Positions 20,158 through 42,997 of a DNA stretch of 43,141 bases are shown here, in pieces (positions within the stretch are counted from its first letter, which is position 1; each line of letters begins with the position of its first letter). Source of the stretch: a virus; IMG/VR virus record IMGVR_UViG_3300050120_000109, positions 1 to 43,141 of that record. One strand, 5' to 3'. A program made the translations under genes and the position numbers. Below the pieces are notes generated by a model that saw only the letters and a list, made by a program, of their open reading frames with translations, made no database searches and was not told the DNA's origin.

Positions 20158-20508
20158 ATGGCGCAACATTACATTCTCGGTGATGAGTGCAACCCGGTCG
20201 CGGTCGAATTCGATGAGTGGGTGCAGTGGTTCGGCACGGCTGATCGGCAAATCGCGGTCACCCAGGTTGATGTCGAAGGCTGTCAGGCAATCGTCTCGAC
20301 GCAGTTTATCGGCGTCGATCCCCGCCCGGAAATCCCCGGTCTGACATGGGAGGGGGCGGCGCTGCTGTTCGAAACGCTGGTTATCGGCGGGCCGCTGCAC
20401 TCGTGCGTCGTGAAATACGCGACGGTCGATGATGCCGGGCGCGGTCATGTCGTCGTGGTCGATCGCGTCGATAAGGCAATCAAGGAAGCGATAGACAATG
20501 CCCGATGA
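20158..20508 (+). CDS. Small conserved phage protein (116 aa)
   Basis: AGGAG lies 9 nt upstream of ATG 20158. The sequence is 'DEWVQWFGTADRQIAVTQVDVEGCQAIVSTQFIGVD...LFETLVIGG'. Confidence 0.65.
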   Translation: MAQHYILGDECNPVAVEFDEWVQWFGTADRQIAVTQVDVEGCQAIVSTQFIGVDPRPEIPGLTWEGAALLFETLVIGGPLHSCVVKYATVDDAGRGHVVVVDRVDKAIKEAIDNAR

Positions 20509-23500
20509 TTTCGCGTCGTTCGTAACCTCGACGCTGGGCGGGCCTGTCGCGCCGGCCGCTGGGGCTGCGCCTGGTGCTGTCGGCGGGCTGCCGTCGCCGG
20601 CCAACGATATCGGCGGCGGGTTCCCGGCGTTCATGAAGTCGATGCACCTGGCTACGGCGCAAGCCGCCAAGGGGGCGGTTGGCGCGGCGGCTGATGTCAA
20701 CCCCGACGAAGCGGGCAAGGCGGTGCAGCTCGCCCCGCAACTGGGGCTGCCGGCGTCGGTCGTGGAAACCGACGTTCCCGGCTTCACGCAACAGGCGGCG
20801 GCGGCAAAGAGCAACGCGCTGATCGATGGCAATCCGGTGCTGGCCTCGTGGCTGGCGGCAAACCCGGACGCTGCCCGCATCGCGAAGGACGACTTCGACA
20901 AGCTGGACGTGGTGACGAAGGCGGCAACCGCGCTCAAGTCGGGATGGACGGGCGCCTTTGCCGGTGATCAACGCGGCCGGCTGGGTATGCAAACCATGCT
21001 GGGCGACAACTCGCCGGCAACCGCCGCGTCGATCGCCGGCTTCGACAAGCAGCTTGCCGCCAGTCCGCAACTGTCCGGGGTCTATGGCGCGCTGCAAAAG
21101 GTGACCGGGTTCGCGGGCGGGCTGCTGGATAACTTCCTGCACTCGGCGCCGGAAGCCTATGTAGGGGCCGCTGTGGGCGGCGCTGGCGGGCTGGCGGGCG
21201 GCGGGCCTGCCGCACCTGTCACGGGCGCTGTGGGCGCCATAGGCGGCGCTGCCGTGGGCCTCGGCGTGGGGTTCAAGTGGGATATGTCGCAAATCGCGGC
21301 CGGTAACACTTACCTCGATCTCGGGAACGTCAAAGGGGCGGGTGGGGAGTCGATCGGCGAAAGCGCCAAGCAGGCGGCGGCGGTGCTGGTCGGGATCGGG
21401 ACGTATGCGCTCGCCGGCCTCGGCGGCAAGGCGTCGGGTGTGCCGCAAGCGGCCTCCGGGCTGCTGTCGGACGCGATCAAGGAATCCGTCGTGCAACCGA
21501 CCGTCGCCCGCGCGCTGGGGCAGTTCGCCGGCAAGCTGGCGGCGGGTGGTGCCGAGTTCGCCGCGATCAACGCCGGCATGGAAGGGACGAGCATCTTCGG
21601 GACTGAGTTGGCGAAGCAACTCTCGGCCGGGGATTTCGATACCGTGTTCAACGACCCGGTCACACGGCAACAGGTCATCGACAACCTGATGAGTGCCGCG
21701 CTGGATGGCGCGATGCTGGGGCCGCTGGTGCGGGTGCCCGGCGCTGCCATGGGGTTTGCCGAGTCCTCGATCCGGGCGCGGCAGGCGGCGTCTGATGTCG
21801 AAGCCTTCCATGCGCTGGAAACCGGCACGGCCGATAGCCGGATGCGGGGCCGGTCGCTGGATGCCTTCCACGCCTTCCTTGCCCGGCAGACTGACGGCGC
21901 GCCTACCGAAAACCTGTTCCTGCCGGCTGATCGGGTGCGGGAGTTGTATCAGTCGGCCGGCATCGAACCGGGCGCCGATGATGGCCTGCTGGGCAAGGTG
22001 GCGCCGGATATCGCGGAGCAGCTTGACCAGGCGCAACACACGGGCGGCGATGTCGTCCTCCCCACGGCCGCGTATGTCACGCATCTGGCCGGCACGCCGC
22101 TATCGGACCATCTCCGCCCGGATATCCGGGTCCGGCCGGATGCCATGTCGGCGCGGGAGGCGATGGATTTTCAAAGCAAGCGGGCGGAGTGGCTCGCCGA
22201 TCAGGTCGCCAGCACACACGCCGAAATGGAGCATGAACAGGCGGCGGCCGGGCCTGAGCGGGATGTGTTCGACGACGTGTTCTCGCAACTGCGCGGGGCC
22301 GGTCATACCGTCGATGCGGCGCGGCAATACGCCGCTGTCGTGGCGGCGCGCTACGGTGCCCGTGCGGCGCGTCTGGGGCCTGATGCCGGCTCCGCGCTCG
22401 ATCTCTACCATCAAGCCGGGCTGACGGTGCAGCGGGCGGTGCCGGACGATCTGGCGGCGCTGCCGGTGACCGATACCGACATGGTCCTCAACGCGCTGCG
22501 GCAGGGTGGCAAGCGGCTGCCGTCCACGCGCGACCTGATGGGGCCGAACCTGACGGAGTTCGTCAAGGATCGCGGCGGCGTCTACGACGACACGGGCGAC
22601 TTGCGGGCGATGGACCTGCAACGCGAACGCGGGCTGATCCGCATTCAGAAAAAAACCGGCCTGCAATGGGAAAGCAAAGCCGGCCGCACGATCAACGATC
22701 ATCACGTCGCGGCCTGGGAGCAAGGCTATTTCCCGGAACACGGCAACGATCCAACGTTCGATGACCACGACTTTGTCAACGCTCTGGCGGCGGAGTCGAG
22801 GGGTGACCGGCGGTATGCGCTGGGCAACGTCGATGAACGGCGCAAGGGGTTCTCCGATGCCGCCGCGTCGATGGACCGCTGGTTGGACGACAACAATATC
22901 GATCTCGATCACGTCACGAATGACGATGTAAAGCGGATGCTGGCGCAACATGCCGGCGACGCGGCCGATGCCTATGACCAGTCGGCCTATCACGGCTCGC
23001 CGCATGTCTTCGATAAGTTCGATAGTGCGAAGATTGGCACCGGTGAAGGCGCGCAAGTCTTTGGGCACGGCCTCTACTTCGCCGGCAACAAGGGGATTGC
23101 CCGGTATTACCGCGACGCGCTGAGCAAGGGCAAAACGGTTGGCGGTGTGCCGTCCACGGAATTGAGCAAGGGCGCGCAAACCGCGTTGCGGATGGCGCGC
23201 GATATGGGCGGCGTGGCGCGGGGTCTGCGGGAATATGAGACGCTGATCGCGGCGGAAAAGCGAGCGGTCGAAGAACACGAAAGGATTGTTGCCGACCTGA
23301 AGGCGCACCCGGAAAAACAAGACCGGGACGCGGAAGGCTGGGGCGACCTCGGTGGGCATCTGTCCGGCGTCGAAGCTGATCTCGCCTATCGCAAGGAACG
23401 GCTGGCGCATTACGAAGAAACCCTCGCCGGCTTTAAGGAGTTGGAAGGCAAGGAAATCAAGGGCGACGGCCGGCTGTTCCATGTCGATCTGCCGGAAGAT

Positions 23501-26500
23501 CACGAATACTTGGATTGGGACAAGCCGCTAAAGGATCAACCGGCGCATGTGCGGGCGGCGCTGCATGCGCTGGGGGTATCGGGTGATTTCCAGTGGTCGG
23601 ATAAGCAGCCGATCGGCGGGGGTGACCATGCCTGGATGATGACCGACACGGGCGGCGGGCCGTGGGCAACGCAACGCGCGATCATCCGCACCTTTGGTGA
23701 CAAGTTCGAAGTCGAGTTAATGCACGAGGTGCGGCCGGATGATAACGAATCGCGGGGCCGCACGTTCGATTCGCTTGACGAAGCCAAAGCCTACACCGAA
23801 ACGGCGGTCGATAAGGCCGGCTGGGGGTCGCGCGGTTCGGACGCCTACCACGACCTTGCGCGCAAGCTGGTGGCGCCGGTTGACCCGGAAGCGCGGAACG
23901 AAGGCAACCCTCCGGGCTGGGGTCATGTGGAACCTGAGCATAGGGAAGATCCTGCCGCCGCCAGCAGGGCGTTACTAGAGCATGGGGTCGTGGGCGTGCG
24001 TTACCTCGATGCGGGCAGTCGCGGCAGTGAAGGCGGCACCCACAACTATGTCGTGTTCGATGATAAGCGGGTGACGGTCAAATCTTTCGAGCAACGCAAG
24101 GGCGATGAGCCACGCGGCAAGATCACGCTGGAAGACGGCCGCGCGATCATTACGCTGTTCGCGAAAGCGGACCTGTCCACCTTCCTGCATGAAACTGGGC
24201 ATCTCTGGCTTGATGAAATGGTCCAGGACGCCGCAAGGCCGGACGCACCGCAAGGCATCCGTGATGACATGGCTGCAATCCTCAAGTGGATGAAGATCGA
24301 AAGCCCGGACCAGATTGACACCGAACAGCATGAACTGTTCGCGCGCGGCTTCGAAGCCTACCTGATGACCGGCAAGGCGCCATCGGCCGCACTGGTCGGG
24401 GCGTTCCGCAAGTTCAAGGCGTGGATGGTCTCGATCTATCAAAACGCGCTGGGCCTGCGCGCGCCGATCAACGACCAAATGCGCGCGGTAATGGATCGTA
24501 TGCTCGCAACCGACAACGAGATTGACGCGGCGCGGGCCTCTGAGCGGCACGGGGCGCTGTTCCGCGACGCGGCCTCGGCCGGCATGACCAATGCCGAATT
24601 TGCCGCCTACACCGGGGCGGTGTCGGCCGCGCGCGATCAGGCATCCGACCGGCTGTTGCGGCGGGCGATGGAAGCGATCAGGGCGCAACGGACGAAAAGC
24701 TACCGGGAGGAACGCGCCGGCATCCGCGACGATGTCGAGCGACAAATGCGCACGCAACAGGATCAGCGGGCGCAATACTGGCTCCGCACGGGCCGGATGC
24801 TGGATGACCCGGAAGCCGAATCGGGGGTGCCGCATCAACGGCTCTCGGGGCATGCGATCAAAGGCATGTATGACAACGATGGGGTCTTCGACCTGCTGCC
24901 AAAGGGCACCTATTCGATGGTGCATGCCGGCATCCAACCGGCTGACGTGGCGGAAATGTTCGGCTACCGCGACGGGCAAGGGCTGGTCTCGGCGCTGATG
25001 AACCTTGAAGCGCGGCGCAAAAAAGCCGTCGCGGACACCGGCAAGCCGCTGGATGGCATGGGGTTCCTCGCGCACCAGGTCGACCAGGAAACCGATCGGC
25101 GGATGATGGAGCGGCGCGGCGATGCGCTCGCCGATGGGTCGATCGAGGAAGAGGCGCTCGCGGCCGTCCACAACGCCGCGCAAGCTGATGTCATGGCAAC
25201 CGAGTTGCGGGCGCTCGCGCGCAAGGCCGGGGAAAACCCGCCGTTTTCCATGGCCTCGTTGAAGCAGTGGGCCGCGTCCACCATCGCGGACCTGCCGGTT
25301 GACCGCGGCGCATACCCCGGCACGTATCGCCGCTCGGAAGCGCGCGCCGGCCGGGAGGCGGAGCGGGCGTTGCTGAAAGGTGACCTGCCCGCCGCGTGGC
25401 AGGCGAAGCAGCGGCAATTGGTCAACCATCTGCTGGCGACGGAAGCCGATCTCGCGAAGGATGATTACGACGCTGGTAAAAAACTGTTTCAGCGGTTCGC
25501 CGGCCGGGGCGCGTTCGCCGGCATCGATCAAGCTTATACTGACCGTATCCACGAACTGTTGAAACGGTTCGGCTTTCAAACGTCGCGCTCTGATGATGAG
25601 TTGGGCAGGGGCCTGGGCGCGCAAACCCTCGAAGGCTTCGTGCAAACAAAGTCGGCCGATGGCTACGAAATTACCATCGATCCGGCGTTCTTCGATCCGC
25701 GTCTCGCGAAGCCGTTGGACGATCTGACCACGGAAGAATTCCGCGCGCTCAAGGATGCCGTCACGTCGCTGGCGCATGTCGGCCGGATGGAAAAGTCCGT
25801 GGTGGTCGAAGGGCAAAAGCTGGAATTGTCCGAACTGGTGGCGGAGGGTGTTGACCAGTTGAAGGACTGGAAACGGTCGGACGTGCCGGCCGAGATCAAC
25901 GCCGGTACCGCGACGGGATTCCGGGGCCTGCTGGAAAAGGTCTCGTCGCTGATGCGCACGGCCGATGCCGGCATGCTGAAGCAAGAGCAGGTCTTCGATT
26001 GGCTGGACAACCGCAAGGCTGACGGCGTGTTCAACCGGGTGGTGTTCGAACCGCTCAAGGCGGCGCAGCACCGCGAAAACGACCTTATGGTGATGCTGAC
26101 GGGCCGGCTCAAGGCGCTGCATGAAACCATGCCGGACGGCTGGGAAAAGGGCCTCGGCGTCTCCAAGGTGATGCCGGAATTGATCGATGAGCGGACGGGC
26201 AAGCCGTTCAAGTTCCGCCATCAAGATATCCTCGCGTTGGCTTTGAACACGGGCAACGCGGTGAACGCGGACAAGCTGGCGCGTGGCTACGGCTGGGACC
26301 GGGGCGATATCAAAACCGTCCTCGATCGCGAAATGACGGAACACGACTGGAATTTCGTGCAAGGCATCTGGGACACCTTTGAAACGTTGTGGCCGGATAT
26401 CGAAAGCCTCACGCGGCGGATGACCGGGCTGGGGCCGGAAAAGGTCGAAGCGGTGCCGGTGCAAACCCCGCACGGTGAGTTCCGGGGCGGGTATTATCCT

Positions 26501-27961
26501 CTCGTCTACGATCCGGTTAAAAGCTGGGACGCGGAATTGCGCCGGCAAAAGGCGGCGGGCGGGCTGTTCGAAAATAGCTATTTCAAGGCGTCAACGCCAA
26601 AGGGACACACGCTAAAGCGTATCGACAATTATTACGCACCCATCCGCCTGAGCCTCGATGCGATGCCGTGGAAGCTGGGCCAGGCGGTCCATGACCTGGC
26701 GTTCCGCGAAGCCATCATGGCGGCGGATAAATTCCTCGGGGACAAGCGGTTGCGCGGTGTCGTTTCGTCGGCGCTCGGGCGTGAGTATGTCGGGCAATTC
26801 CGGCCGTGGCTGCAATCCATCGCCAACGATCGCAACGTCGATGACAAGGGCTTGACCGGGCTGGACTGGCTGGCGCGGCAGGCGCGCATCAACACAACCA
26901 TGGTGGGGGTTGGGTTCCGGGTCACCACCATGCTCAAGCATGGCACAACGGCGTTGTTCAATTCGTTTGGTGAGTTGGGCGCGACGTGGATGCTGCGGGG
27001 CACGCGGGAGGTCTACGGCTCGCCGGAACGCTTCATGGCCGCGCATGATTTCATCCTGTCGCAATCTGGGGAAATGCGGCATCGGATCAACTCGATCGAT
27101 CGTGACGTGCGGGAGGGCCTGCGCACCATTCAGGGCGAAAGCGGCCTCCGCGCGACGGCGGAGCGGTTCGGTCACTACGGCGTGGCAATCCTCGATATGG
27201 GGTCGGCGCTGCCGACGTGGATGGGCGCCTACCGCAAGGCGCTGGCGGAGGGGGTCGCGCCTGATGCGGCGGTCCTCGCGGCCGATAAGTCGGTGCGCAA
27301 TGCGCACGGCGCGCAAGGTATTACCGACGTGGCGGCGGTGCAGCGTGGCGGCGATGTCGCAAAGATGTTCACGATGTTCTATGGCTTTTTCAATCATATC
27401 TATAACAGGCAGAGGGATACTCTTCGCACCGCTGGTCAAGCGATAGATCAGGCCAAGCAAGGTGAGTTCGCCGGCGCGCGCCGGGACTTCGGCATCGTCT
27501 TGGCGCGGACCTTCTACTACTTGATTGTGCCGGCGCTGGTCGAAGCGATGGTGTCGGAAGGCGGGCCGGACAAGGACAAGGATGAAAGCTGGCTGGGCTG
27601 GGCGGCGAAGGCGGTTGCCGGGGAAATCCCGGCCGGTATTCCGCTGCTCCGCGATGCCGCGAAAGCCGCGATCTCCGGGCGGACCTATGAAATGTCGCCG
27701 ATTGCAAAGGCGGTCGAGACGGCCATCCTCGCCGGCCGGGATATCGGGTCTGCGATCGGGCTGCGCGATCACGAGGCGTCGCCGCGCTGGGTGCGGCACG
27801 CGATCGAAACGCCTGGCTACGTGTTCGGCCTTCCCACGGGGCAGGCGGCGGGGACCGCGCAATACCTGTGGGACATCTGGCACGGGGACGAAGAACCGGA
27901 CGGCGCGGCGGATTTCATGCGGGGCCTGATGTATGGGCCGAAACCCAAGGGCGCCAGCTAA
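20498..27961 (+). CDS. Giant polyvalent virion/ejection protein (2487 aa) with a PARP-like ADP-ribosyltransferase module and an HExxH zincin motif
   Basis: It is a single uninterrupted ORF in the T7 gp16 position. Residues about 829-1195 (nt about 22982..24082) read 'YHGSPHVFDKF...GEGAQVFGHGLYFAGNKGIARYY' ... 'GTHNYVVFDDKRV'. 'FLHETGHLWLDEM...EQHELFARGFEAYL' lies at residues 1229-1290 (HETGH at nt 24188..24202). There is a Gly/Ala-rich hydrophobic stretch at residues about 220-320. Confidence 0.9.
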   Translation: MPDDFASFVTSTLGGPVAPAAGAAPGAVGGLPSPANDIGGGFPAFMKSMHLATAQAAKGAVGAAADVNPDEAGKAVQLAPQLGLPASVVETDVPGFTQQAAAAKSNALIDGNPVLASWLAANPDAARIAKDDFDKLDVVTKAATALKSGWTGAFAGDQRGRLGMQTMLGDNSPATAASIAGFDKQLAASPQLSGVYGALQKVTGFAGGLLDNFLHSAPEAYVGAAVGGAGGLAGGGPAAPVTGAVGAIGGAAVGLGVGFKWDMSQIAAGNTYLDLGNVKGAGGESIGESAKQAAAVLVGIGTYALAGLGGKASGVPQAASGLLSDAIKESVVQPTVARALGQFAGKLAAGGAEFAAINAGMEGTSIFGTELAKQLSAGDFDTVFNDPVTRQQVIDNLMSAALDGAMLGPLVRVPGAAMGFAESSIRARQAASDVEAFHALETGTADSRMRGRSLDAFHAFLARQTDGAPTENLFLPADRVRELYQSAGIEPGADDGLLGKVAPDIAEQLDQAQHTGGDVVLPTAAYVTHLAGTPLSDHLRPDIRVRPDAMSAREAMDFQSKRAEWLADQVASTHAEMEHEQAAAGPERDVFDDVFSQLRGAGHTVDAARQYAAVVAARYGARAARLGPDAGSALDLYHQAGLTVQRAVPDDLAALPVTDTDMVLNALRQGGKRLPSTRDLMGPNLTEFVKDRGGVYDDTGDLRAMDLQRERGLIRIQKKTGLQWESKAGRTINDHHVAAWEQGYFPEHGNDPTFDDHDFVNALAAESRGDRRYALGNVDERRKGFSDAAASMDRWLDDNNIDLDHVTNDDVKRMLAQHAGDAADAYDQSAYHGSPHVFDKFDSAKIGTGEGAQVFGHGLYFAGNKGIARYYRDALSKGKTVGGVPSTELSKGAQTALRMARDMGGVARGLREYETLIAAEKRAVEEHERIVADLKAHPEKQDRDAEGWGDLGGHLSGVEADLAYRKERLAHYEETLAGFKELEGKEIKGDGRLFHVDLPEDHEYLDWDKPLKDQPAHVRAALHALGVSGDFQWSDKQPIGGGDHAWMMTDTGGGPWATQRAIIRTFGDKFEVELMHEVRPDDNESRGRTFDSLDEAKAYTETAVDKAGWGSRGSDAYHDLARKLVAPVDPEARNEGNPPGWGHVEPEHREDPAAASRALLEHGVVGVRYLDAGSRGSEGGTHNYVVFDDKRVTVKSFEQRKGDEPRGKITLEDGRAIITLFAKADLSTFLHETGHLWLDEMVQDAARPDAPQGIRDDMAAILKWMKIESPDQIDTEQHELFARGFEAYLMTGKAPSAALVGAFRKFKAWMVSIYQNALGLRAPINDQMRAVMDRMLATDNEIDAARASERHGALFRDAASAGMTNAEFAAYTGAVSAARDQASDRLLRRAMEAIRAQRTKSYREERAGIRDDVERQMRTQQDQRAQYWLRTGRMLDDPEAESGVPHQRLSGHAIKGMYDNDGVFDLLPKGTYSMVHAGIQPADVAEMFGYRDGQGLVSALMNLEARRKKAVADTGKPLDGMGFLAHQVDQETDRRMMERRGDALADGSIEEEALAAVHNAAQADVMATELRALARKAGENPPFSMASLKQWAASTIADLPVDRGAYPGTYRRSEARAGREAERALLKGDLPAAWQAKQRQLVNHLLATEADLAKDDYDAGKKLFQRFAGRGAFAGIDQAYTDRIHELLKRFGFQTSRSDDELGRGLGAQTLEGFVQTKSADGYEITIDPAFFDPRLAKPLDDLTTEEFRALKDAVTSLAHVGRMEKSVVVEGQKLELSELVAEGVDQLKDWKRSDVPAEINAGTATGFRGLLEKVSSLMRTADAGMLKQEQVFDWLDNRKADGVFNRVVFEPLKAAQHRENDLMVMLTGRLKALHETMPDGWEKGLGVSKVMPELIDERTGKPFKFRHQDILALALNTGNAVNADKLARGYGWDRGDIKTVLDREMTEHDWNFVQGIWDTFETLWPDIESLTRRMTGLGPEKVEAVPVQTPHGEFRGGYYPLVYDPVKSWDAELRRQKAAGGLFENSYFKASTPKGHTLKRIDNYYAPIRLSLDAMPWKLGQAVHDLAFREAIMAADKFLGDKRLRGVVSSALGREYVGQFRPWLQSIANDRNVDDKGLTGLDWLARQARINTTMVGVGFRVTTMLKHGTTALFNSFGELGATWMLRGTREVYGSPERFMAAHDFILSQSGEMRHRINSIDRDVREGLRTIQGESGLRATAERFGHYGVAILDMGSALPTWMGAYRKALAEGVAPDAAVLAADKSVRNAHGAQGITDVAAVQRGGDVAKMFTMFYGFFNHIYNRQRDTLRTAGQAIDQAKQGEFAGARRDFGIVLARTFYYLIVPALVEAMVSEGGPDKDKDESWLGWAAKAVAGEIPAGIPLLRDAAKAAISGRTYEMSPIAKAVETAILAGRDIGSAIGLRDHEASPRWVRHAIETPGYVFGLPTGQAAGTAQYLWDIWHGDEEPDGAADFMRGLMYGPKPKGAS
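23971..23980 (+). repeat. Copy 6 of GTTACTAGAG (plus orientation), inside the giant gene
   Basis: Exact 10-mer. In frame it reads as A-L-L-E-H. Confidence 0.9.
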
Positions 27962-30250: not shown

Positions 30251-30643
30251 ATGCGAAACATACTATTGTGCGCCGCGGGCGTGTGCCTGGTGCTGTCCGG
30301 CTGCTCGCCGGGAGATCAGGCAAGTGGGGTGGCGATCGGGCAGGCGACGCTCGCGGCGGTCGGGGCGAATACGCCAGTCCGGGGGCAACTGTTCTGCAAG
30401 GCGGTCAACCCGGTTGGTGAGACGGTTATCGAGGCGCTCGCCGATGCTGCCGGGGTGCCGGTCATCGTCTCCGGTATGGCGGTGGATGCGGTCAACACGC
30501 TCTGTGGTGGGGTGAACGGCAAGCCGGTCGCGCCGCCGGCTGACACGTCTACGGTCGTCGTCCAGTCTGTCGTAATCCCGGCTGGGGTCGTGGTGGGCAC
30601 GCCGGCCGCGCCGCTGGCGCCGATCAACCTGCCGGTCTCGTAG
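30251..30643 (+). CDS. Lipoprotein (130 aa)
   Basis: AAGGGA lies upstream of ATG 30251. 'MRNILLCAAGVCLVLSGC' is a signal peptide with an L-S-G-C lipobox. Confidence 0.7.
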   Translation: MRNILLCAAGVCLVLSGCSPGDQASGVAIGQATLAAVGANTPVRGQLFCKAVNPVGETVIEALADAAGVPVIVSGMAVDAVNTLCGGVNGKPVAPPADTSTVVVQSVVIPAGVVVGTPAAPLAPINLPVS

Positions 30644-31174
30644 GCCGTTGCCCGGCCGGCGGGGGTAGGTCGTCGGCCGGGTCGGACTGAATTGCCAATG
30701 TAGCTTGGCCCCGCTGGACAATCCGGCGGGTGCCGGGACCGTCGTCCCGCTATGCGGTTTCGTCAAGGGTGTGGCGCGTTCCTGATTCGGTCCATCCGAT
30801 TCCTGGTCGAGTCGGGGTGGTCGCGCGGCCGATTCATAACGTTCGCTTGGCGTATCGGCGGTGCGAGTCTCGATCTGGAATCGTTGATCTTTCCCTAACT
30901 TCCCATGCCGATGCAACGAGACTCCGCAACGTACTGATTTACAAGGGGTCTTGCGGCGCGGTGGGGAAGTACCGCAGCATGTCCACGCACAAGGCGTCGG
31001 CCGGGCTAACTGTTTTGCCGCAATCAAGCCCAATCGGACCCTGTGCGCCCCGAGGAAGTGGAAAGGGGCGCTACGCGCAGACATGCTTTGGTAGGTCGAG
31101 AGGGTAGGCAAACCCGATCGGGAATACAAGGGGCATGACGGGCGGGGCGGTCGCTTTCCCAATATTGAGGAAGT
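30644..31174. other. 530-bp apparently non-coding region containing a GANTC cluster. Candidate origin, regulatory region or structured RNA.
   Basis: The only ORFs are Arg/Ser/Pro-rich and look spurious in all frames. GC looks lower than the flanks by eye. Seven GANTC sites lie at 30784..30924. Confidence 0.5.
30651..30681 (+). terminator. Weak terminator-like hairpin at the end of the late operon
   Basis: CCCGGCCG / CGGCCGGG form an 8-bp stem with a 15-nt loop. There is no U-tract. Confidence 0.3.
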
Positions 31175-31747
31175 GTGACCGTGAGCGAACCAAGTGTCCG
31201 TAAGTATAGAAAAGAGATACGTGCGCACTTATCTGGTGCGGATGCGGGGCGGTGCGCAGCTTTCGCGCGCATGATGAAGGCGGCGCGCCGGATAGGTGTG
31301 TCGGCTCATTCACTTTTCGAACTGATAATGTGGTCGTTCCGCAACCATGGGCAGGGGCTTGTGCGGAAGAGTATCTCGGAAATGGTGCGGCTGTCGGGGA
31401 TGTGTCGGCAAACCATCGTCACGGCCATTAAGCAACTCGAAGATGCGGGGCTGCTGCGCAAGGTCAAGCGGCGGATTTTCGTTCGCTGGGCGCTTGGCAT
31501 CGCGTCGCGTCAGGACGTGAATATCTATGAATTGCTGGTCCCGGTCACAGAGTCTAATCGGCAGACGGTGGTAGGGGAAAATATAGAGTTAGAGTCCCTT
31601 GAACAAATGCGCCTCCGGAGAGGCGACGATATGGGGGGGGATGTGGATAAGTCGCCCCTCGATCTGGCGTTGGAAAAGCTGGGGGAAAGCATCAAGCGAC
31701 GACTGCCGGTAGCGCCTCGTCGTTGGGACTGGGTGCAACGCGGCTAG
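31175..31747 (+). CDS. Winged-helix (HTH_36-like) protein, candidate replication initiator or regulator
   Basis: 'ISEMVRLSGMCRQTIVTAIKQLEDAGLLRKVKRR' is a typical wHTH. GAGGAAG lies at 31167..31173, so the true start may be GTG 31181. Confidence 0.65.
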   Translation: MTVSEPSVRKYRKEIRAHLSGADAGRCAAFARMMKAARRIGVSAHSLFELIMWSFRNHGQGLVRKSISEMVRLSGMCRQTIVTAIKQLEDAGLLRKVKRRIFVRWALGIASRQDVNIYELLVPVTESNRQTVVGENIELESLEQMRLRRGDDMGGDVDKSPLDLALEKLGESIKRRLPVAPRRWDWVQRG

Positions 31748-32112
31748 AACAGCGACGGTTGCCCGAAAGATTGCTCGGTAAGGGGTGCGGGTGGTCGGGC
31801 CTGTGGGGCGGGCTGTGGCGCCTGGTGCGGTCGATCGGCCGCTAAGGGCGCCGGGGTAACCGGTATCGGATCCCGCGAAAGGGTTAGCGTGCCGGCGCGT
31901 GAGCGTTGGATCGCGTCAACCGTCGCGGCGTGGATGGTGTCGAAGCCGCCGCAAGGCGCGCCGGGCGGGCTGGGGCAGGCGGCGGGGAACGTCTCCCATG
32001 TGGTGGGGCAGTGCCCGCACACGCGCCGGCCTTGCAGCGCGCGCCGGACGGCCTCCGCGACGGCAAGGTCCGGGTTGGTGGCGTAGTCGGGTGCTGCGGC
32101 GTCAGCCGCCAT
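31744..32112 (-). CDS. Hypothetical protein (122 aa)
   Basis: It is last in the minus-strand operon that runs from 33018. It is convergent with 31175..31747, and their stops overlap on CTAG. Confidence 0.5.
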   Translation of the reverse strand: MAADAAAPDYATNPDLAVAEAVRRALQGRRVCGHCPTTWETFPAACPSPPGAPCGGFDTIHAATVDAIQRSRAGTLTLSRDPIPVTPAPLAADRPHQAPQPAPQARPPAPLTEQSFGQPSLF

Positions 32113-32266
32113 AGACGACCTGTGTGAGCGGATGCACGGGCGTTGCGTTCGTCATGTGGTCGAACGTGACCATAAGCTTGTCGGGCCGGCTCGCGTTGTA
32201 CGGCGCGATCGTGCCGGCCTTGCCGGCGACGGTAACCCGCTGGCCGGTGCGGGGCGTGCTGGGCAT
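32102..32266 (-). CDS. Possible small protein (54 aa)
   Basis: Internal ATG at 32266. 'GQRVTVAGKAGTIAPYNASRPDKLMVTFD' looks like a small beta-barrel. There is no clear RBS. Confidence 0.3.
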   Translation of the reverse strand: MPSTPRTGQRVTVAGKAGTIAPYNASRPDKLMVTFDHMTNATPVHPLTQVVYGG

Positions 32267-32316
32267 GTGGTGGCGGTCGGCAAGGCTGCCGTAGCCGGGT
32301 GGGTCGTTGGTGACAC

Positions 32317-32619
32317 TCAATGAACTGCTCCTGAACTTGGCGGTGTGGTGGCGGTCTCGGGCGGGTCTTCGGTCTGGATTGTGCCGTTCGGCGTCATCTC
32401 CCCCAGGTAGTGAATGGCCGCGATTGCCATGCGATAGAAGGCGTCGATGGCGTGCTTGTGGTCCTCCGCGTTGGCAACTTCGGTGCCAAGGGAAGCGAGG
32501 GCCTCGCCGGGTGTCATGCCGGGCGGTCGTCTGGCTTGTAAATTCGCTTCCATAAGCCGGCATGCCAACTCGACCGGGTCGAGGGCGATGGTAAGGGTAG
32601 CAGTCCGCACGGTAGGCAT
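32317..32619 (-). CDS. Hypothetical protein (100 aa)
   Basis: ATG at 32619 is preceded by AGGAGGA. Confidence 0.6.
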   Translation of the reverse strand: MPTVRTATLTIALDPVELACRLMEANLQARRPPGMTPGEALASLGTEVANAEDHKHAIDAFYRMAIAAIHYLGEMTPNGTIQTEDPPETATTPPSSGAVH

Positions 32620-32691
32620 GGGGCGTCCTCCTGCATGGTGGGGATGGTGCAAAGCGGGACCATCTCGCGCCAGTCTGGGCCGATGTGAAGA

Positions 32692-33018
32692 TCAGAGGGT
32701 ATAGGGTCGGCCGTCGTCATGGATCGGTCCGTCGCTGCCGCGTAGTGCGCCGCGTAGATGCGCCATTGCCAACGGCTCCGATATCGGTGGCGCGCCGGGG
32801 TTAGCACTCGCGGCGATGAACGCGCCGGCCTCGGCGAGTGCGGCCAAGCCGATGACGTTAAGTAAGGCTGGGTTGGCGTTGCGGCGTCGATGCAGGCTGA
32901 CGATGCGCAACAAGGTCTTGCGCAACTCCTTGCTGGTCTGGTCGGCGGTGGCTTCCCAAAGTTCCGGCGTGGGAATCTGATACGTGGCGGTCGGGTCGGT
33001 GGGGTCTCGCACGGGCAT
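32692..33018 (-). CDS. Hypothetical protein (108 aa), first gene of a minus-strand operon
   Basis: AGGAGG lies upstream of ATG 33018. Confidence 0.6.
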   Translation of the reverse strand: MPVRDPTDPTATYQIPTPELWEATADQTSKELRKTLLRIVSLHRRRNANPALLNVIGLAALAEAGAFIAASANPGAPPISEPLAMAHLRGALRGSDGPIHDDGRPYTL

Positions 33019-33146
33019 GTTATCCGGCCTCCTGTGCCGGTATTCGGGATTGTATTACGCATCTGGCACGATTAGAAAAGCGTAAGTTATATCACGCAAA
33101 AAGCTAACGGTGATTACGCTTGCATGTATCTCCCCTGTGACTAGCG
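33019..33146. promoter_or_regulatory. Divergent promoter region with ATTACGC motifs and a degenerate GTTACTAGAG-like box
   Basis: TATTACGC (33053..33060), GCGTAAG (33080..33086) and GATTACGC (33112..33119). GTGACTAGCG (33137..33146) abuts the helicase ATG. No SD is visible. Confidence 0.55.
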
Positions 33147-34556
33147 ATGCCTGAACTGCATCAATTCCAAGATGACCTGCTGCAGGCGGCTCGCGCCGAA
33201 ATGGAGCATGTCCGCTCGGTCGTCGTCCAGGCTGCCACGGGTGCGGGGAAAACCGTGATCGGGACTGAGGCGCTCAAGCGGGTTCGGGAGCGTGGCAAGT
33301 ACGGCCTCTTCATGGTCAACCGGGTCGAGCTGGTCGACCAGACCGCGCGCACGTTTGAGAAATGGGGCCTGCCACACGGTATTATCGCTAACGGTTACCG
33401 GCCTAACCCGTTCCCGTCGATCCAGATTGCCTCGATTGGCTCACTTGAAAACGCTCTAAAAAAGGGCTTGGTGCGTGATCCGGCGCTGTGCGTCTGGGAC
33501 GAAGCCCACCACATGGCGGCGCCTACGTGGGCGCGGGTGATGGCCTACTTTCGCCGGGCGCGGCATCTCGGCTTGACCGCGACGCCTGAGCGCCTCGATG
33601 GGCGCGGGCTGGATGCCTTCTTTGAGGCGATGGTGTGCGGGCCACAACCGGGCTGGCTCATCGATAACAACTATCTCGCACCTTACCGGGCGTTCGGTCC
33701 GAAGCGGCCGGACCTGCGCGGCGTCGGGGATCGGGGCGACGATTACCATCCCGGCCAACTGGCCGCGATCATGGACACGCCAACGCTGTATGGCGACATG
33801 GTCGAGAATTATCAGCGCCACGGGATGGGGCAGAAGTTCATCGCCTTTTCCGTCTCGCGGGATATGTCGCGCAAGACGGCCGAACGGTTCCGGCTGGCCG
33901 GCATCCCGGCCGTGCATGTCGATGGCGACACGCCGGCCGGTGAGCGGCGGGCGACGATTGAGGCTTTCCGCGCCGGCAAGCTGCGGGGCCTGTGCAATGT
34001 CGACCTGTTCGGTGAGGGCTTCGATGTGCCCGACGCGGTCGTTGCGATCCTCGGCCGGCCAACAAAGTCCTTCGCGGTCCACAAGCAACAGATGGGCCGG
34101 GTGATGCGGTACGAGTTTGGCAAGGTGTCAATCCTGCTGGACCATGCCGGCAACCTCAAGCCGGGCTGGCTGCCGGACGATGAAACCCATTGGACGCTCG
34201 CCGGCCGGATCAAGGGGGTTAAGAAAAAGCGCCAGGCTGAGGACGATATCGATCTCGGCCGGTGCGGCAATTGTGGCGGCTTCTGCCAGCCCGGCATGAT
34301 GCTCTGCATCGGCTGCGGCGGGGTGCGCATCGAAGCCGTGGGCAAGCAACTGGAAACCGTCGAGGGCGTGCTTGGGGAATACGATGTCAAGGCGATGCGG
34401 GCCGCGCGCAAGCGCGAACAGGCGGACGCGCAAACGCTGGATGAGTTGATTGAGTTGGGGCGTCGGCGGGGTTACCGGTCGCCGGAAGGATGGGCGCAAC
34501 ACTTCTTCTCCGCGCGTGCGGCGGCGCAAGGGGGCTTTGACCTTGACGGGCGGTAG
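33147..34556 (+). CDS. SF2 DEAD/DEAH-box DNA helicase with a C-terminal zinc ribbon (469 aa)
   Basis: Motif I 'QAATGAGKT', motif II 'VWDEAHH', motif III 'LGLTATP', motif VI 'QQMGRVMR' and 'CGNCGGFCQPGMMLCIGCG'. Confidence 0.9.
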   Translation: MPELHQFQDDLLQAARAEMEHVRSVVVQAATGAGKTVIGTEALKRVRERGKYGLFMVNRVELVDQTARTFEKWGLPHGIIANGYRPNPFPSIQIASIGSLENALKKGLVRDPALCVWDEAHHMAAPTWARVMAYFRRARHLGLTATPERLDGRGLDAFFEAMVCGPQPGWLIDNNYLAPYRAFGPKRPDLRGVGDRGDDYHPGQLAAIMDTPTLYGDMVENYQRHGMGQKFIAFSVSRDMSRKTAERFRLAGIPAVHVDGDTPAGERRATIEAFRAGKLRGLCNVDLFGEGFDVPDAVVAILGRPTKSFAVHKQQMGRVMRYEFGKVSILLDHAGNLKPGWLPDDETHWTLAGRIKGVKKKRQAEDDIDLGRCGNCGGFCQPGMMLCIGCGGVRIEAVGKQLETVEGVLGEYDVKAMRAARKREQADAQTLDELIELGRRRGYRSPEGWAQHFFSARAAAQGGFDLDGR

Positions 34557-34563
34557 GCCGGGG

Positions 34564-34575
34564 CCGTTACTAGAG
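34564..34575 (+). repeat. Copy 7 of CCGTTACTAGAG (plus orientation)
   Basis: Exact and intergenic, 13 nt upstream of the ATG at 34589. It is followed at once by an 8-codon mini-ORF (ATGGGGGTATTAGATGCAAAGCCATGA). Confidence 0.9.
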
Positions 34576-34588
34576 ATGGGGGTATTAG

Positions 34589-34807
34589 ATGCAAAGCCAT
34601 GAGCGACAGGCCAAACACAAGGCGGCGAAGCGGGCGGCGGGTCTGGTGCAAGTGAATGTCTGGCTGCCGGAAGCTGCCGCCGCTGATATGCGGCGGGCGG
34701 CGGAAATCATCCGCCAGTATCCACGGCTGACGATCGGCCGGCTGTTCGATCCGACAACCGGCCGGCTGGTCAGTCTGCGCAATCCAAAGGTTGCTGATCT
34801 AAGCTGA
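34589..34807 (+). CDS. Small basic protein (72 aa). Paralog B of 370..594.
   Basis: 'AAGLVQVNVWLPEAAAADMRRAAEIIRQYPRLTIGRLFDPTTGRLVSLRNPK' aligns residue-for-residue with the 370..594 product. Confidence 0.7.
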   Translation: MQSHERQAKHKAAKRAAGLVQVNVWLPEAAAADMRRAAEIIRQYPRLTIGRLFDPTTGRLVSLRNPKVADLS

Positions 34808-35926: not shown

Positions 35927-36232
35927 ATGGCTCTGCCTAACCCCGGCCCAAAGGGCGCCTTGTGGTGGATGAACGCCACGACCTGCCCGCATTGTGGCGG
36001 CAAGCTGAACGCGACGGGCACGGTCGAAAGCAAGGTGGCGCCGGCCTCGGGCGATGTCACGATCTGCGCGCATTGCCTGCATGTCCTGCAATTCGATAAG
36101 GGCCATGTGCCGCGCGCGATGGTGCCGGAACACCTGGCGCTGTTGCTGATGATGGACGAGGATTTCCGCGCCAGCATGGAAGCCGCTCAATCCTTCGTCC
36201 GGCGCACGAAACGTGCGGGCGGCTTCGGGTGA
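35927..36232 (+). CDS. Zinc-ribbon protein (101 aa)
   Basis: GAGGGA lies about 10 nt upstream. The motif is 'CPHCGG...CAHC'. Confidence 0.6.
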   Translation: MALPNPGPKGALWWMNATTCPHCGGKLNATGTVESKVAPASGDVTICAHCLHVLQFDKGHVPRAMVPEHLALLLMMDEDFRASMEAAQSFVRRTKRAGGFG

Positions 36233-36708
36233 TCGGGCCGAACGCGCTGATGTGGCTGGGCCTTGGTTTCGATGTGTTGGTGCTCGCGGCGGGCGCGATA
36301 ATCATTGCTCGCGGGCGGCGGTCGCTGCGTCTTCTGCGGGAGTCTACCGCAAGGCTGCGGCACGCAACGGCGGCGGCGTCGGCTCTGATGCTGCCTTATC
36401 TGCCGGGGGTGCGGGGCTACGTGCCGCCGATTGTTTGGGGAGAGGTATATAAAATGGATCTTCTATCGGACGATGAGCGCAACTTGTTCGTGCTGCTTCT
36501 GTCGGCGGAGGTCAGCCGTCACACGTCGCTGGGTCCGGGGGTGCAACCGGAGAAAGTCGAGGCGCTGCTACGCAAGGTCGAGGGCCGGGACCGGTATATC
36601 TATGTCAGCACACGGGCGGAGGGCTTGCCGCCCGATGCGGTGATGCGCGCGGCGGTGGATAAATCGGTGACTGGTGCGCCTTCCACGGCCGCAACCAATG
36701 GCGCGTGA
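36229..36708 (+). CDS. Membrane-anchored hypothetical protein (159 aa)
   Basis: A GTG start overlaps the upstream stop. The N-terminus 'LMWLGLGFDVLVLAAGAIIIA' is hydrophobic. Confidence 0.5.
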   Translation: MIGPNALMWLGLGFDVLVLAAGAIIIARGRRSLRLLRESTARLRHATAAASALMLPYLPGVRGYVPPIVWGEVYKMDLLSDDERNLFVLLLSAEVSRHTSLGPGVQPEKVEALLRKVEGRDRYIYVSTRAEGLPPDAVMRAAVDKSVTGAPSTAATNGA

Positions 36709-37114
36709 GTACACCTGTTCGAGTTGCGGCGCCTCGGTGATCCTGTTCGGCGGGCCGGAAACCGAAACGCGCTGCGCCGGCTGTAACTGGTTGATGTGTA
36801 TCGATGATCCCACGGCGCGGGCGGCACTGCGGGCGCATATGCTGGCGCATGACATCATCGGCAACGGTGGCAATACCGGGCCTCCGGTGGCGGTCGAGTT
36901 GTGGTTTGTGCCGGATGTGGAAGAAAAGCCGGCGCCGGCCGATCAGTCGAAGTACGTGTGCTGTATCTGCGGGGAAGAAATGTTGACCGGCCGGCCCGAT
37001 GCGGAAGCCCGGGCGGAACACGATCGTCTGCACCGTGGGCACGAACCGCCCCGGCAATCGGGCCGGGCCTGTGGCGACTGTTGGTTGCTGGTGCGGGAGT
37101 CCGGCCTGTTCTAG
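36698..37114 (+). CDS. Double zinc-ribbon hypothetical protein (138 aa)
   Basis: ATG 36698. Motifs 'CSSCG...CAGCNW' and 'CCICGEE...CGDCW'. Confidence 0.55.
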   Translation: MAREYTCSSCGASVILFGGPETETRCAGCNWLMCIDDPTARAALRAHMLAHDIIGNGGNTGPPVAVELWFVPDVEEKPAPADQSKYVCCICGEEMLTGRPDAEARAEHDRLHRGHEPPRQSGRACGDCWLLVRESGLF

Positions 37115-37830
37115 TTGGGGGTCGGGGTGGTGGCTATCATGGCGGCAGCGATCTGCAAGCCGGCCGCCTTAGTGTAGGCTTCAAGCCGGGTGAGTTCGGC
37201 TGGCGCTGCCGGCGTCGTGCCGTCCTGCCATGACACAAACATGCCTCCGAGTAGATGGTCCTGGAAGTCGATCACGGGGCATGACATGCGCGACGACTCG
37301 CCGAATTCGAGCATTTTGTCGTGGGTCTTCTGTTCCGCTGTGGCAAGGGTCTCGTAGGTGCATCTGCTGGCAAGCATCTCGTTCAGAAACGGTATCCAGT
37401 CGGACAGGGTGCCGTTCGAGGATAGCCGGCCGGGTGAGAAGCCGGGCCGGGCGATGGCGTGCGTGACGTCGTAGCGCAGCAACCCGACGCCATTTAACCC
37501 GACGGTTCCATTGTGGATGATCGCTAGCCGCACGCGTGCGGCCGTGGGCGCCTCGGCCAGTATCCGGCGCAACAGGTCGTCGGTGAGTTTGTCGCGCCTG
37601 GCTGTCTCCGATAGGTCGTGTTGCAAGGTGTCGATCGCGTGCGGGTCGGTGAGCAAGAGATCGAAGCCGGCTTGCAGCCCGCCTTCTCGTTTCGCGGCCA
37701 CGGCCAGCACAAGGGCGGTGATTAAGACGACCGTCAGGAGCGGGCTGCGCAAGGCGGAAGCGAGCGGGCGGGCTGAACCGAGGAAAGCCCCCACCAATCT
37801 CATAACCGTTATAAAATCGGTGAGGCTCAT
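37111..37830 (-). CDS. Membrane protein with a globular C-terminal domain (239 aa), last gene of the minus-strand operon
   Basis: There are two N-terminal hydrophobic segments. It lies downstream of the holin-like gene and might be lysis-associated. Confidence 0.55.
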   Translation of the reverse strand: MSLTDFITVMRLVGAFLGSARPLASALRSPLLTVVLITALVLAVAAKREGGLQAGFDLLLTDPHAIDTLQHDLSETARRDKLTDDLLRRILAEAPTAARVRLAIIHNGTVGLNGVGLLRYDVTHAIARPGFSPGRLSSNGTLSDWIPFLNEMLASRCTYETLATAEQKTHDKMLEFGESSRMSCPVIDFQDHLLGGMFVSWQDGTTPAAPAELTRLEAYTKAAGLQIAAAMIATTPTPN

Positions 37831-37834
37831 GGTG

Positions 37835-38251
37835 TTAGGCTGCCGCTAAGGTGTTGGCGCCGGTGCCGATGCCGTTCGCTGCTGGCGGCGCTGTAGAGGG
37901 TGATGCCCGGCCTGTCAGTGCGAGTTTGTCCAGTTCCCCTTGCAGGATTTTCTGCACGGTCTGTGGGTTTCCGCCGATTGCTAGCACTGCCGGGCGGATG
38001 GTGCTGACGATCGTATCGACGCTGGCGTTGATGAGATTCATCTCAACGAGTTCGGGGCTGGCGTTGGCGGGTAGGTTGGAGAGGGCGCGCGCGATTGACG
38101 CGGCCTCTTGGCTGGCCATGCCGGTGACGCGGGCAAGGGCGGTGTGGCCTTTTTGGTTGGCCGTGGCGGATATCTGGGTCAACCAATTGCCCAGCATTGG
38201 CAGGGCGACGGCCGCGCATATCGCGACATCGCCCCAGGGGATGCTACTCAT
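37835..38251 (-). CDS. Holin-like small membrane protein (138 aa)
   Basis: AGGAG lies upstream of ATG 38251. It has an N-terminal TM segment 'VAICAAVALPMLGNWL' and sits immediately downstream of the endolysin. Confidence 0.5.
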   Translation of the reverse strand: MSSIPWGDVAICAAVALPMLGNWLTQISATANQKGHTALARVTGMASQEAASIARALSNLPANASPELVEMNLINASVDTIVSTIRPAVLAIGGNPQTVQKILQGELDKLALTGRASPSTAPPAANGIGTGANTLAAA

Positions 38252-41995: not shown

Positions 41996-42144
41996 GGTTT
42001 CGTGAGGGCAGGTTAAAGGCGCGTAAGATTACGCCGCTAGCGTAATGGTGGTGGATAACTCGGCATCACGCCAGAAAGTCGTGATAACTTAGCAACACAC
42101 AACCGCAACCTGTATTGGCTGCGGCTGTGTCTCAAAATAGGGCC
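41996..42144. promoter_or_regulatory. Intergenic region upstream of the primase with ATTACGC inverted repeats and a DnaA-box-like element
   Basis: GCGTAAG (42021..42027), GATTACGC (42027..42034) and GCGTAAT (42040..42046). GTGGATAACT (42051..42060) reads TTATCCAC on the other strand. GTGATAACT lies at 42081..42089. Confidence 0.5.
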
Positions 42145-42636
42145 TTACGGCTCGCGGCGAAGTCTGACACGCGCATGGGCCTCCGCGAGTTCCTCAAGTC
42201 CTGCTTGAAGGGTTGGGCTGATCGGTTCCTCGCCGGTCGCCATGCGGCGGACGCGGCTGCTGTCGATCGCGATCATCGAGGCAAGTTGGCGCTGGCTCCA
42301 TCCGATGATCGCGAGACATTCGCGTAAGCGGGTGGGAGTCATCGGGCCGGCGGTCGGGAACGGCGGAGGGGGCCATGCCTCGGCGCTGGCTGGTGTCGTC
42401 AGCGGGGGTTGCTGCAAGCCATGTGTGGCGGCGTGGCGGCTGGCGCCTAAAGCCGTCTGGTTGGCGGCGCGGTTCGCTACGTCGCGGCGGCTCTCGCCTG
42501 GGTAGGGGCTGGGGGCGTTCCACCACGCGCTGTCGCGGGCCTCGCGGATGATGTCGCGGCGGGGTGGCTGGGTCTGGACGCCTTGCGCGTCGTCCTCTGC
42601 TGCGCGGTTGCGGTCGGGTGGGGGTGGCATTGTCAT
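42145..42636 (-). CDS. Xre-type HTH protein (163 aa)
   Basis: ATG 42636 overlaps the upstream stop (ATGA). The C-terminal part 'LRECLAIIGWSQRQLASMIAIDSSRVRRMATGEEPIS' is a typical HTH_3 motif. The N-terminal half is Pro-rich and likely disordered. Confidence 0.6.
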   Translation of the reverse strand: MTMPPPPDRNRAAEDDAQGVQTQPPRRDIIREARDSAWWNAPSPYPGESRRDVANRAANQTALGASRHAATHGLQQPPLTTPASAEAWPPPPFPTAGPMTPTRLRECLAIIGWSQRQLASMIAIDSSRVRRMATGEEPISPTLQAGLEELAEAHARVRLRREP

Positions 42637-42878
42637 GGCTGGGGGTCTTCCTTCTCGGGGACCATGGTTATGAGCGGCTCGAAGAAATCCGCGGTGATCC
42701 GGCAAGCGATAGCGCGGCGGGTCATGGTGCGCACGTAGCAACGCCGGTACTCGGTGCCGTAGCGGTCGGGGAAGGCGCGTATGGCCTTGTCCCAGCACCG
42801 GGCGGCGATGGTCCACTCGCACGCGCGTTCGGCGAGGCGCGCTGTCCAGCGGTATTGGTCGGTCTCGGCGTCGGTCAT
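42633..42878 (-). CDS. Hypothetical protein (81 aa)
   Basis: AGGAG lies 9 nt upstream of ATG 42878. The track ORF starts at 42902, which has no RBS. Confidence 0.5.
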   Translation of the reverse strand: MTDAETDQYRWTARLAERACEWTIAARCWDKAIRAFPDRYGTEYRRCYVRTMTRRAIACRITADFFEPLITMVPEKEDPQP

Positions 42879-42908
42879 CGGGGCGGCTCCTGCGGCGGTC
42901 ATACTGGC

Positions 42909-42939: not shown

Positions 42940-42997
42940 TCAGAAAACGCCGAACGTGGACTTCAGCCAGTGGGCGCCTTTGCGCTTGTTGCCGCCT

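Follow-up and report, generated by a model that had tools for sequence, protein, structure and literature searches.

The DNA analysed here (IMG/VR virus record IMGVR_UViG_3300050120_000109, 43,141 bp, hereafter the window; its contig derives from the Logan assembly of SRR35930614) is a circular 43.0-kb podovirus-like genome. Since its first 127 bases (1..127) recur identically at the other end (43014..43141), the circle measures approximately 43,013 bp. Between the last structural gene and a plus-strand gene encoding a 188-aa winged-helix DNA-binding protein (31181..31747, GTG start at 31181) lies a 531-bp gap (30644..31174) that contains an array of seven GANTC pentamers, the target of CcrM-type adenine methyltransferases, within 141 bp (30784..30924). 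The gap comprises, in this order, putative terminators, the array, a structured leader and an apparently occluded ribosome-binding site directly before the gene, which places the array in a promoter or upstream-control position. A prediction made from the sequence of the window (the original prediction) had interpreted this cluster as a methylation-sensitive origin or switch upstream of a Rep-like gene.

Density, conservation and surroundings of the array

Direct counting located the seven sites exactly where they had been predicted, namely GATTC at 30784, 30798 and 30831, GAGTC at 30809 and 30865, GAATC at 30878, and GACTC at 30920. The earlier estimate of about 0.5 sites expected per 141 bp was reproduced (0.46-0.48 using global or local base composition), as was the observation that gaps 813..1183, 33019..33146 and 41996..42144 show no similar clustering, all three being devoid of GANTC. 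The same holds for gaps 6067..6432, 34557..34798 and 42823..43013, the non-coding gaps other than that of the array adding up to approximately 1.4 kb. Counting over the whole window, which contains 48 GANTC sites, corroborated the proposed local enrichment over a uniform density: the array is enriched approximately 15-fold over composition and approximately 50-fold over the genome's own GANTC density. Indeed, the Poisson probability of seven or more sites is 1.6e-6 per segment scanned at the rate of shuffled sequences (about 5e-4 after correction for all segments) and 1.4e-10 at the real background rate. Outside the array, no 150-bp segment holds more than two GANTC, and composition-matched motifs that are 3-10 times commoner peak at only 4-6 copies per 141 bp. 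Nine of the 48 sites fall within 30784..31596, which represents 1.9% of the genome (binomial p = 2.7e-7).

Across the collections searched, a homologous gap was found only in IMG/VR UViG_3300043649_000005 (hereafter L001), which is approximately 88% identical to the window (87-95% over shared DNA). These searches included blastn against GenBank phages, scans of IMG/VR anchored on the winged-helix protein or the helicase, exact-block DNA scans of IMG/VR and metagenomes, and word-indexed searches at the protein level, for which the winged-helix protein, its L001 counterpart and the lipoprotein encoded upstream were used as queries. Because the array is present again in L001, an independent Joint Genome Institute (JGI) contig, it is not an assembly artefact. 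L001 retains six of the seven sites; that at 30878 has been lost, and a new GAGTC has arisen through an in-phase 11-bp tandem duplication of a neighbouring site, so that L001 also contains seven. The pentamer bases are identical in both genomes at 33 of 35 positions (94%), in contrast to 75 of 116 (65%) for the spacers (Fisher p = 2.5e-4), and the central base is the same at all six common sites. Elsewhere in the aligned DNA, in spite of its higher overall identity (87-95%), only 6 of 13 GANTC sites are shared, and nine are unique to L001. The pentamers thus appear as islands of constraint in a fast-drifting stretch. The gap had been regarded as non-coding, and this holds: a coding explanation was discarded, as the open reading frames (ORFs) present there (30730..31107 and 30263..31228) are not conserved as protein in L001. 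Altogether, the data support a local enrichment that is real, extreme and, judging from the comparison of both sequences, under selection.

An exact 20-mer, GACTCCGCAACGTACTGATT (30920..30939), which comes from the block of the gap with the highest conservation, is found again in five almost identical metagenome contigs (L113-L117). Its location in these contigs is an intergenic region of a bacterial chromosome (e.g., L114 2053..2300) with five GANTC in approximately 185 bp and no other similarity to the gap. These contigs were discarded as relatives of the gap: the region is unrelated and, odd as its context is, one such match is close to chance expectation for the size of the database and is probably fortuitous.

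With one flanking base on each side, the sites read in order TGATTCG, CGATTCC, CGAGTCG, CGATTCA, CGAGTCT, GGAATCG and AGACTCC. They form a group of four followed by a group of three and, written as GAKTC, sites 1-5 lie on the plus strand and sites 6-7 on the minus strand. The seven sites of L001 all come close to a common phase with a period of 11.1 bp (R = 0.93, p = 0.003, periods of 9.5-12 bp scanned); of those in the window, five of seven share a phase, with a period of 11.3 bp (R = 0.80, p = 0.05). The site at 30878, which falls out of phase in the window, is precisely the one absent from L001, and the site newly acquired by L001 is in phase. Alignment of the sites revealed practically no information outside the pentamer, except for a C at position -1 in five of the seven (p = 0.04); a C preceding GANTC has been reported for Brevundimonas GcrA targets (PMC7987155). 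A tandem-repeat origin of the sites was discarded, as Tandem Repeats Finder detected nothing in the window or in L001. Likewise, neither several regularly spaced copies of a 17-22-bp unit, as iterons would require, nor a direct-repeat family beyond the pentamer was found. With no information beyond the pentamer and no tandem repeat, the repeated unit is thus (C)GAKTC and not an iteron. An inverted repeat (I2) is formed by imperfect copies of CGATTCC-N3-TCGAG(A)CTC on either side of a 57-bp spacer. Site 1 (TGATTCG) corresponds to the top GcrA consensus, and sites 3 and 5 fit YGAKTCK (consensus from PMC4647560); motifs for alphaproteobacterial LexA, CtrA or DnaA were not detected in the gap. The array has a GC content of 0.57 and is not overlapped by any of the 12 lowest-GC windows of 60 or 100 bp.

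Both flanks of the array are predicted to be structured at the RNA level. The structural operon probably terminates at a G+C-rich plus-strand hairpin (30645..30685, inverted repeat I8) located 2 nt past the stop codon with which the late genes end. This hairpin, whose consensus fold is fully kept in L001, lacks a U-tract and was not called by a consensus terminator scan based on this feature. A second plus-strand hairpin with a 9-bp stem (30710..30730), also conserved in L001, where one U-G pair becomes C-G, is a possible tandem or bidirectional terminator. Downstream of the array, a structured non-coding leader (30925..31180, plus strand) is 86% identical to that of L001 (202/250, three blocks summed) around a divergent core (30996..31075), and its consensus fold includes three pairs preserved through changes on both sides. 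Within it, the stem of the hairpin GCGCCCC-N13-GGGGCGC (31045..31071, plus strand) is kept in L001 by a C-G to U-A double change, with an unrelated loop; in the window, this loop repeats the Shine-Dalgarno string GAGGAAGTG. In a further plus-strand hairpin of the consensus fold (31149..31180), which ends directly before the GTG start at 31181, the Shine-Dalgarno sequence GAGGAAG (31167..31173) pairs with CUUUCC, one G-U pair becoming G-C in L001. The presence of two conserved leader hairpins, one of which would occlude the Shine-Dalgarno sequence, suggests translational control of the winged-helix gene. The fold of the whole gap is significant (z = -4.4), and a search of the gap against Rfam yielded no family match. 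An RNA element at the array itself was rejected, given this lack of an Rfam match and non-significant folding (z = -0.4 and -1.0), its structured flanks notwithstanding.

The winged-helix gene stands isolated on the plus strand and converges with minus-strand genes (31744..33018). Its longest ORF begins at 31175 and other gene callers place the start at 31271 or 31382; the array lies 251-391 bp before the longest ORF, matching the approximately 250-390 bp given earlier. Its description as a winged-helix Rep-like gene holds for the winged helix, whereas the resemblance to Rep is weak: the Pfam HTH_36 match is below the cutoff (22.8 bits against 25), and the PHROG matches to O-like and Rep N-terminal winged helices (phrog_270 and phrog_678, E approximately 1e-5) extend only over the winged helix. 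A word-indexed search with the protein detected no relatives and two single-protein scans for loci of the family found nothing, whereas exhaustive phmmer comparison retrieved 147 distant homologues, mostly of 110-225 aa, with a common signature (ASRQ..N.Y....P.TES). The family size is 150-175 aa, and the best PDB match of the family profile is SlyA (1e-4). In the AlphaFold model (predicted local distance difference test, pLDDT, 82), the nearest folds are the generic winged helices of TFE and MarR (template modelling score, TM, 0.3-0.5), with the N-domain of plasmid RepA scoring far lower. According to these models, the protein looks like a MarR/SlyA-type regulator rather than a demonstrable Rep.

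In L001, an unrelated allele, also of the winged-helix type and with weak matches to LexA_DNA_bind and HTH_36, has taken the place of the gene, the exchange extending exactly from start to stop codon. As the gene was swapped and the array kept, it can be argued that the array is not a specific target of this protein. More distant relatives, with a helicase approximately 45-49% identical, carry a cI/cro pair at this position behind the tail fibre gene, which points to a regulatory slot. The cI/cro intergenic region of these relatives holds one or two GANTC against a very low background; in L002 (6460..6501), L005 (6149..6291), L006 (6317..6459) and L008 (5622..5665), whose genomes contain about one site per kb, a GANTC is located at most 10 bp upstream of the cro start. 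The replacement at 31181..31742 is one of several that make the window and L001 mosaic against their otherwise 87-95% identity, the others being located at 35936..36303, 37114..37863 and 42381..42621.

Inside the winged-helix gene, a low-GC region (31509..31650, GC 0.46) begins with an A+T-rich stretch (31509..31608) that contains GANTC at 31550 and 31592, and ends with TTATCCACA (minus strand, 31642..31650), a perfect DnaA box that occurs nowhere else in the genome (0.094 expected per genome). The box lies approximately 720 bp downstream of the array and is absent from the replacement gene of L001. If the winged-helix protein were an initiator, this region would be a candidate internal origin.

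GANTC deficit, probable host and phage genome

The array stands out against a genome that is poor in GANTC, with 48 sites observed versus 163.9±11.6 in dinucleotide shuffles of the window. Much of this deficit is due to codon usage, yet an approximately 2-fold depletion beyond codon usage exists: the 29.5 kb of confident coding sequence contain 30 GANTC versus 54.9±4.9 after synonymous-codon shuffling (z = -5.1), whereas the rarity of an equally rare control motif, CTNAG (25 versus 30.6), is wholly accounted for by codon usage. In the window, GANTC has an observed-to-expected ratio (O/E) of 0.34, which falls to 0.29 when the array is left out. The ratio was 0.00 (Caulobacter phage SR18), 0.19, 0.25 and 0.30 in four alphaproteobacterial phages, in contrast to 0.60, 0.63 and 0.70 in three betaproteobacterial sequences of the same G+C content (two phages and one genomic contig), values that equal the codon-usage baseline computed for the window. 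GANTC is known to be under-represented in CcrM-bearing Alphaproteobacteria (PMC3973325), with which the deficit of the window agrees. The link to CcrM-type hosts drawn in the original prediction is thus upheld as far as the deficit is concerned, the window resembling phages of CcrM-bearing Alphaproteobacteria and not Betaproteobacteria of the same G+C content. From this small O/E panel, the host is likely a CcrM-bearing alphaproteobacterium. A cluster like the array was not observed in the four alphaproteobacterial phages, which contain at most two GANTC per 146 bp.

SR18 (L111, MN746332.1), whose host has CcrM, avoids the CcrM motif completely, with no GANTC in 45,260 bp at 64% G+C, where composition alone predicts 149. 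Other palindromes also deviate in the window: GTAC and CTAG are each depleted approximately 7-fold genome-wide (19 observed versus 141 expected and 21 versus 141, respectively), and GATC and TCGA are approximately 2-fold over-represented.

Homology searches were less informative with regard to the host. With portal, primase, endolysin and capsid proteins as tblastn queries, only distant cultured phages spread across Proteobacteria were retrieved, and the only plasmid match of the winged-helix protein, a weak one, was to the alphaproteobacterium Lichenicola.

Profile and homology matches define a podovirus structural module on the plus strand (approximately 1184 to 30643) that encodes a small terminase (terS, 1184..1876, plus strand), a split large terminase, portal, a GP7-type capsid protein, an SLT protein, a 2487-aa polyvalent virion protein, tail fibre and a lipoprotein. 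The large terminase is apparently split between ORF 2559..3437, with the ATPase part, and ORF 5323..6066, with the nuclease part; an intron, a mobile insertion or a truly split gene could explain the approximately 1.9 kb of unrelated ORFs (3450..5317) between them. The virion protein (20498..27961) carries the polyvalent domain LPD22 and a weak match to the ADP-ribosyltransferase domain ART-PolyVal, domains that are typical of injected multi-domain counter-defence proteins. Beyond the winged-helix gene and the convergent minus-strand genes, a superfamily 2 (SF2) helicase gene (33147..34556, plus strand) is followed by a long minus-strand block encoding an endolysin, a CHC2 primase fused to a P-loop helicase, and a helix-turn-helix (HTH) protein. 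Neither an integrase nor a methyltransferase, a GcrA homologue or a tRNA was found among the phage genes; a small NPPY-type methyltransferase missed by Pfam was also considered and rejected, since the sole NPPF motif is located in the 2487-aa virion protein, which contains no methyltransferase domain. The circular contig and the lack of a detected integrase make a plasmid-prophage lifestyle possible, as they do a lytic one or an unrecognised mode of integration.

A putative methylation-sensitive control region and its alternatives

We tentatively propose, as the best-supported reading, quite possible though far from assured, that the array is a cis-acting, CcrM-type methylation-sensitive regulatory region for the winged-helix gene. 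According to this model, seven targets of a host GANTC adenine methyltransferase, arranged roughly on one face of the helix upstream of the gene, would be unmethylated on lytically made DNA, fully methylated on resident DNA and hemimethylated right after replication. A methylation-sensitive factor, such as one of the GcrA-sigma70 type or a protein excluded by methylation, would read this state and set transcription of the winged-helix gene, so that a regulatory or replication decision of the phage would become tied to host replication and cell-cycle state, or else to the history of the phage's own DNA. A host restriction system cutting GANTC would turn a conserved seven-site array into a liability; an orphan methylase would make it usable as a signal. 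Whether methylation activates or represses cannot be told from the sequence. Of the two roles originally suggested, a methylation-sensitive switch is better supported than a methylation-sensitive origin, as the array lacks a DnaA box, iterons, A+T richness and a turn in GC skew.

Several observations weigh against this proposal. The conservation argument is based on two sequences, with L001 as the single relative, and the share of YGAKTCK among the array sites (3 of 7) is not above that among all sites of the genome (21 of 48). Nor is the array a trait of the winged-helix family, since just 0-2 GANTC were counted upstream of homologues in other contigs (L118, L120, L122 and L123). The host itself was not pinpointed through prophages, as a scan of 185,579 species genomes revealed none that was close, the nearest match being 40% identical (Caballeronia), and GANTC depletion is not specific to CcrM hosts, since some low-G+C phages or relatives (L037, L057) are also depleted. 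The phage provides neither a recognisable methyltransferase nor a GcrA gene of its own. Moreover, neither strand of the gap contains a recognisable sigma-70-type promoter, nor has one been conserved in L001. Known GcrA promoters require one or two sites near the transcription start, not seven. In such promoters, a high-ranked YGAKTCK is found within approximately 40 bp of the sigma-70 start, near -20 or between +2 and +30 (PMC4647560).

Among the alternatives, it is conceivable, though rather unlikely, that the array forms part of a replication origin or of a once-per-cycle control, in which methylation would permit or prevent the winged-helix protein encoded next to it from initiating replication, by analogy with the GATC clusters of oriC and P1 oriR or the GANTC sites of Cori and repABC origins. 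The weak matches of this protein to phage O-like and Rep N-terminal winged helices are compatible with this idea, as are the accumulation of 9 of the 48 GANTC sites in 30784..31596, the possible plasmid-prophage lifestyle of a circular contig with no integrase found, and the perfect DnaA box and A+T-rich stretch with two GANTC inside the gene, an arrangement reminiscent of the origin within the initiator gene repC, where GANTC also occurs (PMC11514494). However, the gap contains no DnaA box TTATCCACA even when one mismatch is allowed, the box inside the gene is missing from L001, and neither array nor gap offers any repeat beyond the pentamer. At a GC content of 0.57 and with no adjacent unwinding element among the lowest-GC windows, the array does not resemble a site of strand opening, and cumulative GC skew is monotonic, with no turn. 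The family of the protein resembles small MarR/SlyA-type regulators, the genome encodes a P4-alpha-like primase-helicase that could itself be the initiator, and the exchange of the protein in L001 around a retained array argues against a specific initiator-iteron pairing. That exchange bears equally on a second, improbable, alternative, namely that the sites serve as binding sites for a phage or host protein with a (C)GAKTC core and methylation plays no part, since in L001 the neighbouring DNA-binding gene was replaced and the sites did not change. Helical phasing would suit cooperative binding along one face of the DNA, and the C preceding five of the seven sites (p = 0.04) and the two imperfect inverted copies of I2 around their 57-bp spacer would fit such an array. 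Conservation of the central base at all six shared sites does not discriminate, as selection on GANTC and selection on the exact words are not separable here. Nevertheless, information beyond the pentamer is near zero, the central base is not constant among sites (T, G and their complements), a variation that GANTC would show and one operator word would not, and the genome-wide purge of exactly GANTC implies a host agent acting on that motif.

The P1 type of methylation-gated pac site, controlling terminase cleavage, offers a numerical parallel, because the 161 bp of P1 pac contain seven hexamers with GATC (PMC10028697) and the seven GANTC sites in 141 bp are split into groups of four and three. 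The location of the array makes such a role very improbable: it lies 13.3 kb upstream of terS (1184..1876) on the 43,013-bp circle, neither in nor beside this gene, and the A+T-rich gap directly before terS (813..1183) would be a more usual place for pac or cos. That the array has no function at all, GANTC being simply tolerated where there is no coding constraint or multiplied by local duplication, could draw on the 11-bp tandem duplication that generated one site in L001. This explanation is hardly credible in view of the absence of sites from all other gaps (approximately 1.4 kb), the genome-wide chance probability of approximately 5e-4, the conservation of the pentamers against a 65%-identical background and the lack of a detectable tandem repeat.

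Within the proposed methylation-sensitive control region, the phased sites might act as a cooperative sensor of "DNA age", in which a reader bound along one face of the helix would tell the three methylation states apart, the unmethylated one including freshly injected DNA, and set the expression of a swappable regulator accordingly; we consider this extension speculative and unlikely. If true, such a sensor would let the phage choose between lysogeny and lysis, or license one plasmid-prophage replication per host cell cycle. Being compact, conserved and phased in a genome that purges the motif, the array constitutes a clean and easily mutated test case to address whether and how a phage reads the cell-cycle methylation of its host, and why phages of CcrM hosts avoid GANTC. 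Should it turn out to be a mere binding array, it would nonetheless mark where a rapidly exchanged regulator cassette is controlled.

Comparison with known systems

Bacteria are well known to use clusters of orphan-methylase targets as epigenetic devices, as exemplified by Dam-site clusters at E. coli oriC, P1 oriR and pac and the Mu mom promoter, and by Cori and the repABC and gcrA promoters in Alphaproteobacteria. To our knowledge, no equivalent of SeqA is known in Alphaproteobacteria. GANTC clusters at alphaproteobacterial promoters and origins, as well as Dam-site clusters in enterobacterial phages, are known already; in the literature search, no report was found of a GANTC array or of a CcrM-based epigenetic switch in a phage. 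What has been described for alphaproteobacterial phages comprises phage-encoded CcrM mimics, GcrA homologues and CtrA boxes, and a survey of their genomes detected no positional clustering of GcrA-type sites in the genomes analysed (PMC9437464).

Like the array, Dam-site clusters including P1 pac concentrate many targets of an orphan adenine methyltransferase in 100-250 bp, where methylation is sensed for cleavage, initiation or transcription, as it would be at the array, and the site count and span of P1 pac (PMC10028697) are nearly equal to those found here. The motif and enzyme family differ, however, as the phage array is built of GANTC and would depend on CcrM instead of GATC and Dam; in addition, it is far from terS and is not accompanied by DnaA boxes or iterons. 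Closer in motif are the repABC modules of alphaproteobacterial replicons such as chromids and megaplasmids, in which GANTC-rich promoter, repE and origin regions have been documented (PMC11514494, PMC6090056). Similarly, the phage locus carries GANTC upstream of and inside a DNA-binding gene near an A+T-rich stretch (seven and two sites, respectively). In contrast to repABC, it has no homologues of repA, repB or repC and no recognised antisense RNA, and its 188-aa protein is a generic winged helix, not RepC.

The gcrA promoter of Agrobacterium tumefaciens, with six GANTC in the 250 bp upstream of the ORF and methylation-dependent activity, belongs to a species in which repABC control regions are also rich in GANTC (PMC11514494). 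What this promoter and other GcrA-CcrM promoters (PMC11514494, PMC4647560, PMC3973325) have in common with the array is that many CcrM targets crowd into the non-coding DNA before a regulatory gene, the rest of the respective genome being poor in GANTC; several array sites match the GcrA consensus (TGATTCG, YGAKTCK). They differ in that no promoter was recognised at the array and the extended motif is not enriched over the rest of the genome. Compared with the A. tumefaciens promoter, the array is approximately twice as dense, helically phased and borne by a phage. Finally, clustered CtrA boxes in alphaproteobacterial phage genomes have been associated with "lytic deferment" (PMC9437464). Regulator and motif are different in that case, the window having no TTAA-N7-TTAA site, but the proposed role of the array would be of the same kind, with phage cis-elements borrowing a host cell-cycle regulator to time expression.

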